Assembly: GCA_964534185.1 (NCBI GenBank)
Contig: CAZHOH010000004.1
Coordinates: 17,438 to 81,437, forward strand
Reading direction: 5' to 3'
Origin: Candidatus Woesearchaeota archaeon
GTDB taxonomy: Archaea > Nanobdellota > Nanobdellia > Pacearchaeales > GW2011-AR1
Length of the DNA stretch: 64,000 bases
The translations under genes were made by a program, and so were the position numbers. Positions 20,705-29,333 of the stretch are shown piece after piece. How positions within the stretch are numbered: the stretch's first letter is position 1; every line of letters starts with the position of its first letter. Below the pieces are notes generated by a model. The model saw only the letters and a list, made by a program, of their open reading frames with translations, ran no database searches and was not told the origin of the DNA.

Positions 20705-21289
20705 ATGCCTCGGGATAATTTTGTTTTTAGAAAGAATAATCAGCTTGGAAAGGCCGATAAAAGTATTCGGCAGGAGTGGGATGAGAGGATTGCTGGGTTG
20801 TGTGAGCTGATTAATTGTTTTGATAATTATTATACTACTTCGAGTTGTTCTGGGCGTGTGTTGTTGTTGTTTGATTCACGAGAGAAAAGAGATGATTTAT
20901 TTTTGAAAGTTTGGCATGATGAAATTGATTTTGAGGATTTGAAAAAGGTTTTAGGAGGGATTGATTCTTTGCAGATGATTTATTTTAAACAAGAGCCGTG
21001 TATTCTGCATGTTGCGTGCCGGAGTTTGGAGGATGCACAGAAAATGCATGATTTGGGGAAGGCGGCTGGTTGGAAGAGGTGCGGGATTATTGCAAGTGAT
21101 AAAAGGTATGTTGTTGAGCTGAATGCAAGTGAGAAATTAGAGTTCCCTGTTTTTGCTGATTTTAAGGTTTTGGTTAGTGATGAATTTTTGAAAGTTGTTG
21201 TTTCTGAGGCGAATAAGAAATTGGAGAGGAGTTGGGAGAGGATTTCTAAATTGAAAGAGTTGATTCAGCCGCTGAAAGGGCTGTCGTGA
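20705..21289 (+). CDS. taw3: tRNA wyosine-derivative biosynthesis protein Taw3 (TYW3 family methyltransferase)
   Basis: Signature YYTTSSCSGRV of the TYW3/DUF207 family. Start set at the ATG at 20705 (MPRDNF...); the tracked upstream part begins at a TTG. Confidence 0.7.
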   Translation: MPRDNFVFRKNNQLGKADKSIRQEWDERIAGLCELINCFDNYYTTSSCSGRVLLLFDSREKRDDLFLKVWHDEIDFEDLKKVLGGIDSLQMIYFKQEPCILHVACRSLEDAQKMHDLGKAAGWKRCGIIASDKRYVVELNASEKLEFPVFADFKVLVSDEFLKVVVSEANKKLERSWERISKLKELIQPLKGLS

Positions 21290-22800
21290 GAGGCCATTCC
21301 ATGAGCTTTTTTGTATACGTCGAAAATTGTAAAGCATGTTTCTGATGCAGTGTTTGCTGCTATTTTTCTTACTAGTTTTTCTCCATAACTGTCTTTTTTT
21401 ATGTTGTCTGCCGAGTTTATTTCTTTGTCTTTTTTTGAGTTTTTGCTTTTGAATAAGTCTGTGAAGCCACTGAAAAGTGCTGAAAAAGGATTTGTGTCTT
21501 CTTGATTTTGTTCTTCCTGGTTTTTTTCTTCTGGTTTTTCTTTTCCTTGCAGGTAGTGGTCTATGTCGCTTTGCAGTTCGTCTATGCTTTCTGTTGTTAT
21601 GCCTTCAATTAATTTGAATGCGTCGTTTACGTCTGAATTTTCCATTTCTTTTTTTAGTAGCTTTAGTTCATCTTCGTTTAGTGCATAAGCCTGAAAGTTT
21701 ACTGTTGCTTTTCCACCAAATAAATAGTGCTGTCCTGCTTTTTGAGGTATTCCTCTGAAATGAAAGTCTACTACAACAATTGAATAGTATTCTCTTTTTG
21801 GAATTGATAATCCGCCTGGGAGATTTGTTTTGCCTATTTCTTTTTCTACGTCTACTTTATTTTTTCCGAATAGTGCTAATTCAAGGACGATTGTGTTGAA
21901 GTTTGTTACAATTTCTGGAGATGATTCGTTTGAGAGTTTTTCATTTTCTTCTAATTTTGTTGCTGCTTTGAGATATGGTTTTACCCATCTTGAATAGAGT
22001 TTTAAACTATTGACTTGGCTTTTTAGGTAGTTTCTTTCTATGTTGAATCTTTTTTGTAGTTCTTGTTTGCTTTGTTTTGTCCATTCTTCGAATTCTATGA
22101 ATCTTGGTTTTAGGATTCTTTTTACCCTGTCGTTTAAGTCCATTTTTTCAATGTGTGAGACTGATTTTGCTGCCATGAATCCATCTCTTAGTGTTATGAA
22201 CTGGAGGTTTCCTGATGCTAGTGCGTTTATACTTCCTTGTCCTCTTTTTATGTCTACGTTGTCCATCCAGATTTGTTTTAGTGCGAGCATGCCTGCTTCT
22301 TTTCTGTCTTTGTCGCTTGATTCTAATGCTTTGTAGTGGTCGAGTCTTATTTCAAATTCTTTTAAGTCATATATGATGTTGATTATGCTTTTGATTACTG
22401 TGTTGATTGTTCCCATTGTTTCTGTTACGTTTTTCTGCATTAAGGATTTTCTCTGTCCCATTTCTGAAAAGTGTCCTGAGCCTGGGGAGGATGAGAAGTT
22501 GTCTATTAGTTTTTCGACTTTTCCGCCGAAGAAATTGTTCATCATGTCAAGTATCCAGAAGTAGATTGGTTCGAGTGTTTCTGATGAGGAGTCGTATACT
22601 ATTTTGTGTGCTCTGACTGGTTTTGCCCTTGCCTTTTCTGCAGCGTGGGTTGTTCCCTTTTCTTTTATTAGTTCTTTAAACTCTTTTAGCTTTTGAGGTG
22701 ACCCACCATAATCATGATAAAGTTTTGGATTTGTTGTTGCGATTATTTGAGCTATGCTTGCCATGTTCTTTTTTAATATATTTTGAATTATATAAAACAT
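21265..22800 (-). CDS. hypothetical protein (511 aa)
   Basis: Large soluble ORF with an acidic KEKPEEKNQEEQNQED segment. No motif recognised. Confidence 0.45.
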   Translation of the reverse strand: MFYIIQNILKKNMASIAQIIATTNPKLYHDYGGSPQKLKEFKELIKEKGTTHAAEKARAKPVRAHKIVYDSSSETLEPIYFWILDMMNNFFGGKVEKLIDNFSSSPGSGHFSEMGQRKSLMQKNVTETMGTINTVIKSIINIIYDLKEFEIRLDHYKALESSDKDRKEAGMLALKQIWMDNVDIKRGQGSINALASGNLQFITLRDGFMAAKSVSHIEKMDLNDRVKRILKPRFIEFEEWTKQSKQELQKRFNIERNYLKSQVNSLKLYSRWVKPYLKAATKLEENEKLSNESSPEIVTNFNTIVLELALFGKNKVDVEKEIGKTNLPGGLSIPKREYYSIVVVDFHFRGIPQKAGQHYLFGGKATVNFQAYALNEDELKLLKKEMENSDVNDAFKLIEGITTESIDELQSDIDHYLQGKEKPEEKNQEEQNQEDTNPFSALFSGFTDLFKSKNSKKDKEINSADNIKKDSYGEKLVRKIAANTASETCFTIFDVYKKAHGMASHDSPFSG

Positions 22801-22829: not shown

Positions 22830-23954
22830 ATGTCGCTTACTGTGATAGTAAAACCAACTCACGATTGCAATATTTCTTGCAGACATTGTTATATTGATGA
22901 AGCTGCTGAAAGTGGGACTATGACTGAATCTACTTTGTATAATACTCTTTTTCAATCTTCACAAAATGCTAAGGATGGTTCTGTTCAGTTTATTTGGCAT
23001 GGTGGAGAACCTCTTCTTATGGGGTTAGGTTTTTATCAAAAAGTTTCGGAGATGTCTGATGAACTTAGAGCTAAAGGATATAATATTGGAAATTCTATTC
23101 AAACTAATGGAATTTTGATTACTGATGAGTGGCTTGATTTTATTGAAGAAGAAAGAGATTTTAGATTGGGGCTTAGTTTAGATGGTCCTAAAGAGATTAG
23201 CGATGCTACAAGGGTTTATTGTGATGGAACTAGTGCATTTGATGATATATTAAGAGGTATTAGAAAAGTTAAATCAAGAAAACAGGGAGATAAAGTAAGG
23301 AAGGGAGCATTTGGTGGAGGGGCTATTGTTACTTTGAACAGACATCATCTTGGAAGAATAAAAGAGACATATGATTTTTTTAAGTCTGAGGAAATAAATA
23401 TGAAAGTTAATCCCCTTGTCAATTGCGGAAGAGCCAGTTTGAATGAAGATTTGAGGATAACCCCAAAAAATTATGGAGATTCTATGGTGGAACTATTTGA
23501 TTTGTGGGTTGAAGATTATGAAACTATTGATATAGAACCTTTTACAATGATTATGGGAAATTTGTTGACAGGTAAACCTGTTGGTTGTAATTATTCAACT
23601 TCCTGTAGAGAGAATTACGTTTCTATAGGACCAAATGGAGAAGTATATCCTTGTGGGAGATTTAATGGGAATTTGGATTTTTTAATGGGGAATGTGAATG
23701 ATGAGAATGGTTTGACAAATGCTTTGAATTCTCAGGTTAGTCAAAACTTGTTTGAGATGAGACAAGAATCTTCTCTTGGTTGTGGCAATTGTGATTATAT
23801 TGCTGTTTGTAATGGGGGATGTATGCATAATGCTTTTGTTGCTGGGGATATTAGAGGTAAAGATGAATACTGTTTTGCATACAAAAAGATTTTTAACCAT
23901 GTGGCCCAATTTTTAGATGATGAGTTAAGTAAAGCGGAGGTAACAGATGACTAG
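22830..23954 (+). CDS. radical SAM / SPASM-domain protein (COG0641 AslB-like peptide or protein maturase)
   Basis: N-terminal CNISCRHC (CxxxCxxC) radical-SAM cluster motif preceded by VKPTHD. The C-terminus has the SPASM-type Cys cluster CGNCDYIAVCNGGCMHNA plus further Cys. Confidence 0.8.
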   Translation: MSLTVIVKPTHDCNISCRHCYIDEAAESGTMTESTLYNTLFQSSQNAKDGSVQFIWHGGEPLLMGLGFYQKVSEMSDELRAKGYNIGNSIQTNGILITDEWLDFIEEERDFRLGLSLDGPKEISDATRVYCDGTSAFDDILRGIRKVKSRKQGDKVRKGAFGGGAIVTLNRHHLGRIKETYDFFKSEEINMKVNPLVNCGRASLNEDLRITPKNYGDSMVELFDLWVEDYETIDIEPFTMIMGNLLTGKPVGCNYSTSCRENYVSIGPNGEVYPCGRFNGNLDFLMGNVNDENGLTNALNSQVSQNLFEMRQESSLGCGNCDYIAVCNGGCMHNAFVAGDIRGKDEYCFAYKKIFNHVAQFLDDELSKAEVTDD

Positions 23955-24255
23955 CTTAGTTGATTTAATGGGGAGAACTGTAGATTTAGATCTAATTGAA
24001 AATCCTCATTTGAGAAGAGCTATTCGTGAAAGACTTGGAGATTTTTTATTTTTTTATAGAGATCATACTGATCACAGCGAATATGGAGATCATACAGAAA
24101 AATATTCTGAAAAATATGGTGATTATTATGATCATACTGATAGCAATAAGCGACATGATGATGACGGCAATCCTGTGGAGGAAGTAAGAGGTCATTGGAA
24201 AAAAGACAGGAATGTTGGAGTAAGGAAGTATAGCGATGAATGGTATGATTATTAA
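23947..24255 (+). CDS. His/Asp/Tyr-rich small protein translationally coupled to the radical SAM gene
   Basis: 102 aa. Its start overlaps the rSAM stop (gATGACTAG). The central region HTDHSEYGDHTEKYSEKYGDYYDHTDSNKRHDDDG has repeated DHTD/EKY elements; the DNA shows gatcatac(t/a)ga three times. Confidence 0.5.
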   Translation: MTSLVDLMGRTVDLDLIENPHLRRAIRERLGDFLFFYRDHTDHSEYGDHTEKYSEKYGDYYDHTDSNKRHDDDGNPVEEVRGHWKKDRNVGVRKYSDEWYDY

Positions 24256-24287
24256 TTCATAGCAAATTTTAAAAGAAAAGGATTCTT

Positions 24288-24740
24288 TTGGGAAGTATGG
24301 TTTTTGGGTTTAAGAAAAAGAGGACGATTGATTTTACAAAACTGCCTGCTGATGCACGGCGGGTCCCTGTTAAGCGGGACTTTAAGACGCAGGGAGATTT
24401 TGTTGATTTAAGTGATGAGGACATGGCTAAAGTTCAGAATGATTTGAATTCTTCTGGAGGTTCTGTTAGTTCTTCTAATGTTTCTTCTAGTTCGTCTGGC
24501 GGAGATTCTTCTGGGGGTTTTGGGTTTTTGAATTCTTTGGCTTCTTCTGGAAGTTCTTCACCGGATGTTTCAAGTTACGGGCATTCTGAAAATAGCCCGG
24601 ATGTTTTAGATATTAAGAGGAAGATGAGAGATATGACAAGCAAGATTGAAGATTCTTCGAATGAAGTTTATAGACTGACGCAGAAGATTGAACTGCTTGA
24701 AAAAAAGATTGAGAGGTTGGAAGGGGGGAGAGGATATTGA
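24288..24740 (+). CDS. Ser-rich / coiled-coil hypothetical protein
   Basis: 150 aa. A poly-Ser/Gly low-complexity middle is followed by a C-terminal heptad coiled coil (KIELLEKKIERLEG). Confidence 0.4.
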   Translation: MGSMVFGFKKKRTIDFTKLPADARRVPVKRDFKTQGDFVDLSDEDMAKVQNDLNSSGGSVSSSNVSSSSSGGDSSGGFGFLNSLASSGSSSPDVSSYGHSENSPDVLDIKRKMRDMTSKIEDSSNEVYRLTQKIELLEKKIERLEGGRGY

Positions 24741-27564: not shown

Positions 27565-27915
27565 ATGGATGTAATAGATGGATTAGTTGAATATACTGAG
27601 CACCCTCTTAATAAGATTGTTGAGGCAATGGCAACTAATAATCTGGGATTTAACCCAAATAGAGATAGACATTGTAATGAAGGTGTTTGTTTTAATTATG
27701 TTGATTGTAGAGGGTTGTCTTATGAGGAATCACAAGATGTTGATCCGAATGATACTCTATGTCCAATCATTCAAACTGATGATGCTGATATCTCGAATTT
27801 ACATTGGCACCTTCATAGAATGGATTATGAACGAGTACTTCCTTGGTTTCGAGAAGGTGATGGGGAAATACCAAAATATTCTAAATTTGAATATAGTCTT
27901 ATTACGTTTCCTTAA
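27565..27915 (+). CDS. hypothetical protein
   Basis: 116-aa ORF with several Cys/His. No defined motif. Confidence 0.35.
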   Translation: MDVIDGLVEYTEHPLNKIVEAMATNNLGFNPNRDRHCNEGVCFNYVDCRGLSYEESQDVDPNDTLCPIIQTDDADISNLHWHLHRMDYERVLPWFREGDGEIPKYSKFEYSLITFP

Positions 27916-29333
27916 CCAATATCTTTAATCATATAATCGCCTTGTAATTTGTATCCTAATTTTTTGTAATATTCTCTGACGCCGATTCCAGATATTACTG
28001 CGAGCTTTTTTAGTTCTGGATGGTTTTTTGCTTTTTGTTCTTTTATTATTTGTTCTGCTTTTTGCATTAGTTGTTTTCCTATTCCAAGATGTTGTCCGCC
28101 GCTTGTGTTTTTTGCGCCGATATCAAGGGCTTGTCCGTAAACATGCAGTTCTCTTACAATTGCCGAGTTGTTTAGTTCTTTTATGAAGTGTTTTTTGTAG
28201 TTGCTGGGGATTCTTAGTCTTAAAAGTCCGAAAAGGATGTTGTCTTTGTTTACTGCTTGGATGAAGAATTCTTTTCCTTTGCTTGCGTTGTATTCTAGGG
28301 TTTTTATTTTGTATTCTGGGCTGATTTTTTTCTGATATTGTTTTGCGAATCCTATTTCTCTGAATCTTATTTCTTTTATTTTTTCTTTTTGTTCTCTTAG
28401 TCCTTCTTCGACGTCTTTTCTTAATGATATTCTTGTTGTTCCTGCGATTATGTGTTCTGGTGTGAACTGGCGCATTACTCTCATTGTTCTGCAGTATTCG
28501 GGTATTTCTTTGAACATTCTTATTAGTAGTTTTTGTGTTTGTTCTAGTGTGTAGGGTTTGTATTTTCCTTTTAGGTAGTCTTTTTCTATTCCTGTGTTTT
28601 TTATGACTTGTGTTGGGTATATTTTTAGCTGGTCTGGTTTGAATTCGTTTTCTTTGAATACTTTTTTGAAAAGTTTCAAGTCTTTTTCAGGATTTGATTT
28701 TGGAAGTCCTGGCATTATGTGGTATCCGAGTTTGAAGCCGGCGTCTTTTAGAGTTTGAGTTGCGTTAATTACGTCCTGAACTGTGTGTGCTCTGTTAATG
28801 TGCTTGTATATTTCGTCATCTAGAATTTGGACTCCGACTTCCATTCTTGTGCAGCCAAATTCTAGTGCTCTTTTTATTTCTTTTTCGCCTGCGAAGTCTG
28901 GACGGGTTTCTATGCAAAGTGCGACGCATCGATGTTCTGCTGTTTCATTGAATTTTTTTGCTTGTTCTAAGGATTCTGAAACAAATCCGTTTAGTCCGTC
29001 GTAGCATCCTTTTATGAATTCGTACTGGTATTTTACTGGGTAGGAAAGGAAAGTTCCGCCGAGAATTATGAGTTCGATTTTTTGGGTTGGGTGGTGCATA
29101 AGTTCAAATGCTTTTATTCTTGATTCAATTTGTCTTTTTGCGTCGTATTTGTTTCTTTCTGCCCTTAGGACTGAAGGGGATGAGGGGGTATAAGATTGGG
29201 GGACGTTGAAGACTGGACAGTATCTGCAGACTCCGTGGGAGCAGGGGCGGGGTTTTACCATTACTGCAATTGGAGTTACGCCTGATAATGATTTTGTTGG
29301 CTTTCTAACTTCACCGATTTCTGGTAGTTTCAT
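27912..29333 (-). CDS. elp3: elongator complex protein 3 homolog (tRNA uridine-34 carboxymethyl modification radical SAM / GNAT)
   Basis: N-terminal radical-SAM motif region TPIAVMVKPRPCSHGVCRYCP. The C-terminal GNAT acetyl-CoA motif QHLGIGKQLM and the 473-aa length match archaeal Elp3. Confidence 0.85.
   Translation of the reverse strand: MKLPEIGEVRKPTKSLSGVTPIAVMVKPRPCSHGVCRYCPVFNVPQSYTPSSPSVLRAERNKYDAKRQIESRIKAFELMHHPTQKIELIILGGTFLSYPVKYQYEFIKGCYDGLNGFVSESLEQAKKFNETAEHRCVALCIETRPDFAGEKEIKRALEFGCTRMEVGVQILDDEIYKHINRAHTVQDVINATQTLKDAGFKLGYHIMPGLPKSNPEKDLKLFKKVFKENEFKPDQLKIYPTQVIKNTGIEKDYLKGKYKPYTLEQTQKLLIRMFKEIPEYCRTMRVMRQFTPEHIIAGTTRISLRKDVEEGLREQKEKIKEIRFREIGFAKQYQKKISPEYKIKTLEYNASKGKEFFIQAVNKDNILFGLLRLRIPSNYKKHFIKELNNSAIVRELHVYGQALDIGAKNTSGGQHLGIGKQLMQKAEQIIKEQKAKNHPELKKLAVISGIGVREYYKKLGYKLQGDYMIKDIG

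Follow-up and report, generated by a model that had tools for sequence, protein, structure and literature searches.

A radical SAM/SPASM enzyme translationally coupled to a His/Tyr-x-Asp/Glu repeat protein in a DPANN archaeon: a predicted triceptide-type maturation pair

The triceptide 3-CyFEs, namely XncB/XyeB, OscB/GrrM, MscB/FxsB, YxdB, HaaB, YhhB, HtkB, ChlB and MicB, are RRE-less, anSME-like radical SAM (rSAM)/SPASM enzymes encoded beside precursors with repeated aromatic(Ω1)-X2-X3 motifs. YxdB links Tyr C3 to Asp Cβ, HaaB links His C2 to Ala Cβ, and YhhB joins His or Tyr to Arg Cβ (PMC11002830). HtkB was found to link His C2 to Lys Cβ on an H-T-K motif (PMC11499958), and the substrates of MicB are YSK, HAS and FTK (PMC12912966). 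DynA, DarE and DarW too staple aromatic side chains to the Cβ of a nearby residue. Dynobactin has Trp…Asn and His-x-Tyr rings, the latter a His-containing ring of three residues closed by a His–Tyr Cβ C–N link (PMC11002830).

The pair described here lies in a 64-kb window, the whole stretch of archaeal DNA that was analysed. Its enzyme shares with the 3-CyFEs the lack of an RRE, the anSME-like rSAM/SPASM build and the adjacent precursor, and the core of that precursor consists of repeated aromatic-first three-residue motifs. Proven 3-CyFE substrates include both Tyr-x-Asp (YxdB) and His-x-X (HaaB, HtkB, YhhB, MicB), a comparison made at the level of the motifs. Unlike the described triceptides, the window family has an acidic position 3 combined mainly with His, in long, contiguous, in-phase arrays of 9-12 or more triplets, and it has its own leader, I-x-N-P-x-L-R-R-A-I…F-L-F-N-Y-G-D. 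Its hosts are mostly DPANN archaea, its partners are a C39-like peptidase and a ~500-aa protein of unknown function, and it is known from sequence, scoring below the cut-off of every curated cyclophane model. Most likely, the family is a new branch of known peptide chemistry, stapled at many repeated three-residue motifs. An earlier note, made from the letters alone, had called the system undescribed; this stands for the precursor family, as far as could be found, but not for the kind of system, since modification of aromatic-x-X motifs, Tyr-x-Asp included, by anSME-like rSAM/SPASM enzymes is known.

The gene pair and its conservation

The rSAM gene (22830..23954, + strand) encodes 374 aa without an N-terminal RRE domain. 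The ATG of a 102-aa ORF (23947..24255, +) overlaps its stop codon (TAG, 23952-23954) by 8 nt (…ACAGATGACTAG…), and a Shine-Dalgarno-like GGAGGT (23936..23941, +) lies 5 nt 5' of that ATG, inside the rSAM coding sequence. The box sits in the codons of the conserved C-terminal K-A-E-V of the enzyme, for which the family alignment gives the terminal consensus …ELxKAEVK. Of 29 precursor starts in relatives, 19 also have a GGAGG-like box before them. The small ORF is a genuine gene. The enzyme with its CNISCRHC motif and SPASM Cys cluster, the overlap of stop and start, and the leader and core strings quoted from the small protein had all been described in the earlier note; each was found as described, the enzyme by ORF, Pfam match and alignment and the strings as exact matches in the 102-aa protein.

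The small protein divides into a leader of about residues 1-36 (23947..24054, +; …DLMGRTVDLDLIENPHLRRAIRERLGDFLFF), which fits the family leader consensus (alignments A2, A3), and a core array, residues 37-65 (24055..24141, +). The array reads YRD-HTD-HSE-YGD-HTE-k-YSE-k-YGD-YYD-HTD, or nine [His/Tyr]-x-[Asp/Glu] triplets. Three more follow it (HDD 70-72, YSD 95-97 and WYD 99-101), bringing the protein to 12 [H/Y/W]-x-[D/E] triplets. It matches no Pfam or NCBIfam model and contains neither Cys nor an S-x-P-x-R motif.

An exhaustive profile search (E<=1e-3) recovered precursor homologues that form 193 clusters at 50% identity, mostly from DPANN archaea. These share the leader consensus …G-H-x-I-x-L-x-x-I-x-N-P-x-L-R-R-A-I…F-L-F-N-Y-G-D, which stays sharply conserved while the core varies. 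Lengths range from 54 to 234 aa with up to a dozen motifs, and some members (P0204, P0236) bear large C-terminal extensions. Across the family, [HY].[DE] occurs 1173 times against 395 in shuffled sequences (z=50), and H[ST][DE] 359 times against 35. Position +2 is D/E after 75% of His and 69% of Tyr residues, and Tyr stands two places after just 3% of His residues. Out of phase, the spacings [HY][DE], [HY]..[DE] and [DE]..[HY] are depleted relative to shuffles.

Both of the two closest homologues of the small ORF lie directly 3' of an rSAM gene. An HMM built from leader and core recovers adjoining ORFs in related loci, and an ORF matching the leader HMM adjoins the enzyme, nearly always directly downstream, in about 23 of 26 distinct loci whose rSAM is at least 40% identical. 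When rSAM clades were drawn by UPGMA on identity distances, 30 of the 38 loci in the clade of the window enzyme carried a precursor ORF. In-frame rSAM–precursor fusions occur at one related locus (L015) and in two fragments (P0262 and P0165). Conserved together and coupled in translation, the rSAM protein and its small His/Tyr/Asp-rich neighbour form a probable enzyme–substrate pair with leader and core, as expected of the RiPP-like system that had been proposed.

Sister rSAM clades (32-38% identity) pair with other aromatic-x-acid precursors, among them W-x-D arrays from hot springs. Another such clade belongs to gut Bacteroidales, whose small precursors are likewise rich in Tyr-x-Asp and His-x-Asp triplets. 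There, in contrast to the window pair, the precursor gene is upstream of the enzyme, the leader is different (…TFAQExILxRI…) and the short core (…DYNDCHGDYYDAE) has a conserved Cys. By motif resemblance, this is probably the published Yxd family.

Class and fold of the enzyme

The enzyme matches the Pfam models Radical_SAM (3.2e-15) and SPASM (2.1e-07). Its rSAM motif CNISCRHC occupies residues 13-20 (CX3CX2C; C13, C17, C20), and eight Cys of the SPASM region (C253, C259, C275, C318, C321, C327, C331 and C348) are kept in all 30 members of the family alignment; from their pattern, they are predicted to serve two auxiliary clusters. Compared with profiles of the SPASM subfamilies, the enzyme scores under the cut-off of every curated NCBIfam family. 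The top match is DynA (NF041298; 281.5 bits over the full length, cut-off 450), followed by anSME (TIGR03942; 227.6 bits, cut-off 349); TIGR04083 gives 197 bits (cut-off 300). DarW and DarE also score high, but their N-terminal extensions are missing from the window enzyme, in that their profile positions 40/74 onward align to its residues 2-3. For the cyclophane families, score and cut-off are 152.9/445 for YhhB, 117.2/310 for GrrM, 104.8/425 for AmcB, 98.4/370 for FxsB and 94.2/450 for XyeB. The curated families nearest to the enzyme are peptide cross-linkers: DynA, DarW/DarE, YhhB, GrrM/OscB, FxsB and XyeB.

The AF2 model of the enzyme (pLDDT 89) has anSMEcpe (TM 0.81-0.84) and ChlB (TM 0.80-0.82) as its top Foldseek matches, whereas EpeE-type and PoyD-type enzymes are distant (TM about 0.47). 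In sequence comparison with the PDB, the enzyme scores 135 bits against anSME and 66 bits against ChlB, to which it is ~20% identical. Like anSME (PDB 4K36-4K39), the closest solved structure, the enzyme has the same domain architecture, length and Cys pattern for two auxiliary clusters. The catalytic Asp of anSMEcpe, D277, directly follows the third auxiliary-cluster Cys, C276. In an alignment to 4K37, the 'ypcDfy' of anSMEcpe stands opposite 'ypcGrf' of the window enzyme, such that Asp277 faces G276, which is invariant across the family alignment. Unlike an anSME, the enzyme has Gly for the catalytic Asp, scores under the cut-off and adjoins a substrate without the sulfatase C/S-x-P/A-x-R motif. 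The specificity residue HtkB D214 / HaaB H204 (PMC11499958) was mapped onto the window enzyme by way of L068, a homologue from Pandoraea; the Asp closest to it in L068, D217, aligns with the widely conserved Asp of F-D-x-W, a non-discriminating position.

PqqE and PqqA resemble the window pair in that an rSAM/SPASM enzyme acts with a small Glu/Tyr-containing peptide, and the earlier note had drawn this analogy. It proved weak: PqqE is outside the 25 best NCBIfam families and reaches a TM of 0.55, against 0.80-0.84 for anSME and ChlB; no PqqD/RRE partner adjoins the window gene; and the acidic positions of the family, unlike those of PqqA, are mostly Asp. Asp has no Cγ methylene and cannot give a Cγ cross-link. 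The His-Xaa-Ser system (HxsA repeats; rSAM enzymes HxsB and HxsC; TIGR03978) similarly combines tandem His-first three-residue repeats with a SPASM-type rSAM. However, the HxsB model gives no more than 89.6 bits (cut-off 370), position 3 in the window family is Asp/Glu rather than Ser, and neither a second SPASM rSAM nor HxsD is encoded next to the gene. A viperin-like anti-phage role was also considered and rejected, given that the PADLOC pVip matches span only the generic rSAM core, residues 10-123.

Candidate chemistry and its alternatives

On balance, it is probable that the 102-aa protein is the ribosomal precursor of the overlapping rSAM/SPASM enzyme and gives a triceptide-type RiPP with three-residue cyclophanes, a reading suggested by motif, homology and analogy to the 3-CyFEs. 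The enzyme would bind the conserved N-terminal leader (…I-x-N-P-x-L-R-R-A-I…F-L-F-x-Y), and 5'-deoxyadenosyl radical chemistry would abstract a hydrogen from the Cβ of the position-3 Asp/Glu in each [His/Tyr]-x-[Asp/Glu] triplet. The resulting carbon radical would then attack the position-1 aromatic ring, at His C2 or Tyr C3, to close a three-residue cyclophane. Each ring would lower the mass by 2 Da (−2 Da), and up to about 12 could form along the core. In related loci, the leader is probably cut off by the C39-like Cys peptidase. No C39-like peptidase gene was detected in the 64-kb window (best HMM E=0.11); the product here may therefore remain uncut, or a protease encoded elsewhere may process it.

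The absence of such a gene bears on the alternative that survives best, which concerns the role of the product and is compatible with cyclophanes, with another cross-link or with a non-ring modification. A doubtful but credible possibility is that the small protein is cytoplasmic or on the surface and is modified in place, for example as a cross-linked His/Asp/Glu/Tyr metal-binding or buffering protein, rather than being a cleaved and exported natural product. By analogy, there are rSAM enzymes that mature protein subunits (QhpD acting on QhpC) or sulfatases. Neither a leader peptidase nor an obvious exporter or transporter is encoded in the 64-kb window, the length of the precursors, their dozen or so motifs at most and the C-terminal extensions of P0204 and P0236 would suit a protein, and the composition is typical of metal ligands. 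Copper-chelating RiPPs, the bufferins, are known (PMC12452194), as are His-crosslinked copper-binding peptides (PMC10206099). On the other hand, a C39-like peptidase with conserved Cys and His motifs is encoded directly after the precursor in nine related loci, and the contrast between a sharply conserved leader and a core that varies is typical of a classical RiPP.

The bond itself could be another one. The same pair might form a dynobactin-type C–N link, from His Nτ to the Cβ two positions away, or a daropeptide-type ether; this is considered unlikely. The ranking of DynA, DarW and DarE among the profile matches and the C–N link of dynobactin across three residues are in its favour, but 281.5 bits is far under the DynA cut-off, and the precursor shows no relation to the dynobactin core. 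Neither W-x-W nor H-x-Y is a pattern of the window core, Asp/Glu fill position 3 in 69-75% of cases, and archaeal hosts offer no BamA-target context. Moreover, all His-x-X motifs characterised to date in triceptides give a His C2–Cβ C–C bond (PMC11002830, PMC11499958, PMC12912966).

More improbable still is a modification of the repeats that forms no ring, such as epimerisation at Cα, β-hydroxylation or another oxidation, or decarboxylation of Asp and Glu. The SPASM/Twitch rSAM enzymes do include epimerases, with EpeE among the distant structural matches, and the acidic residue on its own might just as well be what is conserved. However, the aromatic position 1 and the acidic position 3 are strictly in phase while position 2 varies, which is the pattern expected if both ends are joined, and the EpeE-type and PoyD-type enzymes are far more distant than anSME and ChlB.

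Finally, that the enzyme is a housekeeping SPASM protein (anSME, an AhbD/NirJ heme enzyme or a PqqE-like cofactor synthase) beside an incidental ORF has been largely refuted and is highly improbable, because the rank of anSME as second NCBIfam match and best PDB match by sequence and fold, and the recall of PqqA by Glu/Tyr-containing cores, are outweighed by NCBIfam scores (anSME under its cut-off, NirJ2 at 68 bits, PqqE outside the top 25), the invariant Gly opposite Asp277 (…YPC-G-RF for …YPC-D-FY), the Foldseek TM of PqqE, a small protein free of Cys and of S-x-P-x-R, and the conservation of the ORF across 193 clusters, with fusions to the enzyme in some genomes. The outcome that the earlier note had named as refuting its reading, an AhbD-type housekeeping enzyme beside an ORF lacking conservation, was not what these comparisons showed.

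Possible role and neighbouring genes

To our knowledge, few archaeal RiPPs have been characterised experimentally. DPANN archaeal genomes are very small, and the retention and wide conservation of the pair in them points to a function important for the symbiotic lifestyle. From the His/Asp/Glu/Tyr composition, one may guess at a metal-binding or host-interaction peptide. A more elaborate and speculative proposal, regarded as possible rather than likely, is that the pair makes, instead of an ordinary secreted RiPP of the antibiotic type, a small protein or 'ladder' peptide with dense stapling, in which up to a dozen contiguous imidazole- or phenol-to-Asp/Glu rings would fix His, Tyr and carboxylate ligands as a metal-binding, buffering or host-interaction module of genome-reduced DPANN archaea, maybe together with the ~500-aa protein; alternatively, the cross-link could be of an unseen type, for example His–Glu or decarboxylative. 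If the cyclophane prediction is true, cyclophane (triceptide) chemistry would reach His/Tyr–Asp/Glu arrays of unusual density, and peptide engineering would gain poly-stapled scaffolds and new rules for leader recognition without an RRE; if it fails, the enzyme probably carries out a new kind of rSAM reaction, one on acidic residues. Given that the family is both large and internally consistent, these predictions are directly testable.

The ~500-aa protein is encoded divergently (21265..22800, - strand; 511 aa from the first ATG). Translation probably begins at Met13 (22764), which makes the protein 499 aa long and places an AT-rich intergenic region of 65 nt between this gene and the rSAM gene, shared by both. 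In seven related loci (L001, L005, L006, L011, L016, L085 and L088), a homologue with 41-57% identity is encoded divergently and immediately upstream, and the gene accompanies the cluster in one sub-clade. The protein has no match in Pfam, NCBIfam, PHROGs, PADLOC or PDB, and its single-sequence AF2 model is unusable (pLDDT 35). Close relatives with this upstream gene have the C39-like peptidase gene downstream of the precursor.

In the window, the place of that peptidase is taken by a Ser/Gly-rich protein with a C-terminal coiled coil (24297..24740, +; 147 aa). Its ORF spans 24288-24740, and gene callers choose the ATG at 24297. The earlier note had counted this protein as part of the system. 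The ORF is indeed present downstream, but none of about 160 related loci encodes a homologue of the protein, and in the protein collection it is the sole member of its cluster; it was therefore rejected as a component and is, as judged from these comparisons, probably outside the system. Its C-terminus gives only weak coiled-coil-type Pfam matches. Further along the window, the rSAM gene at 27912-29333 encodes an Elp3-type enzyme.

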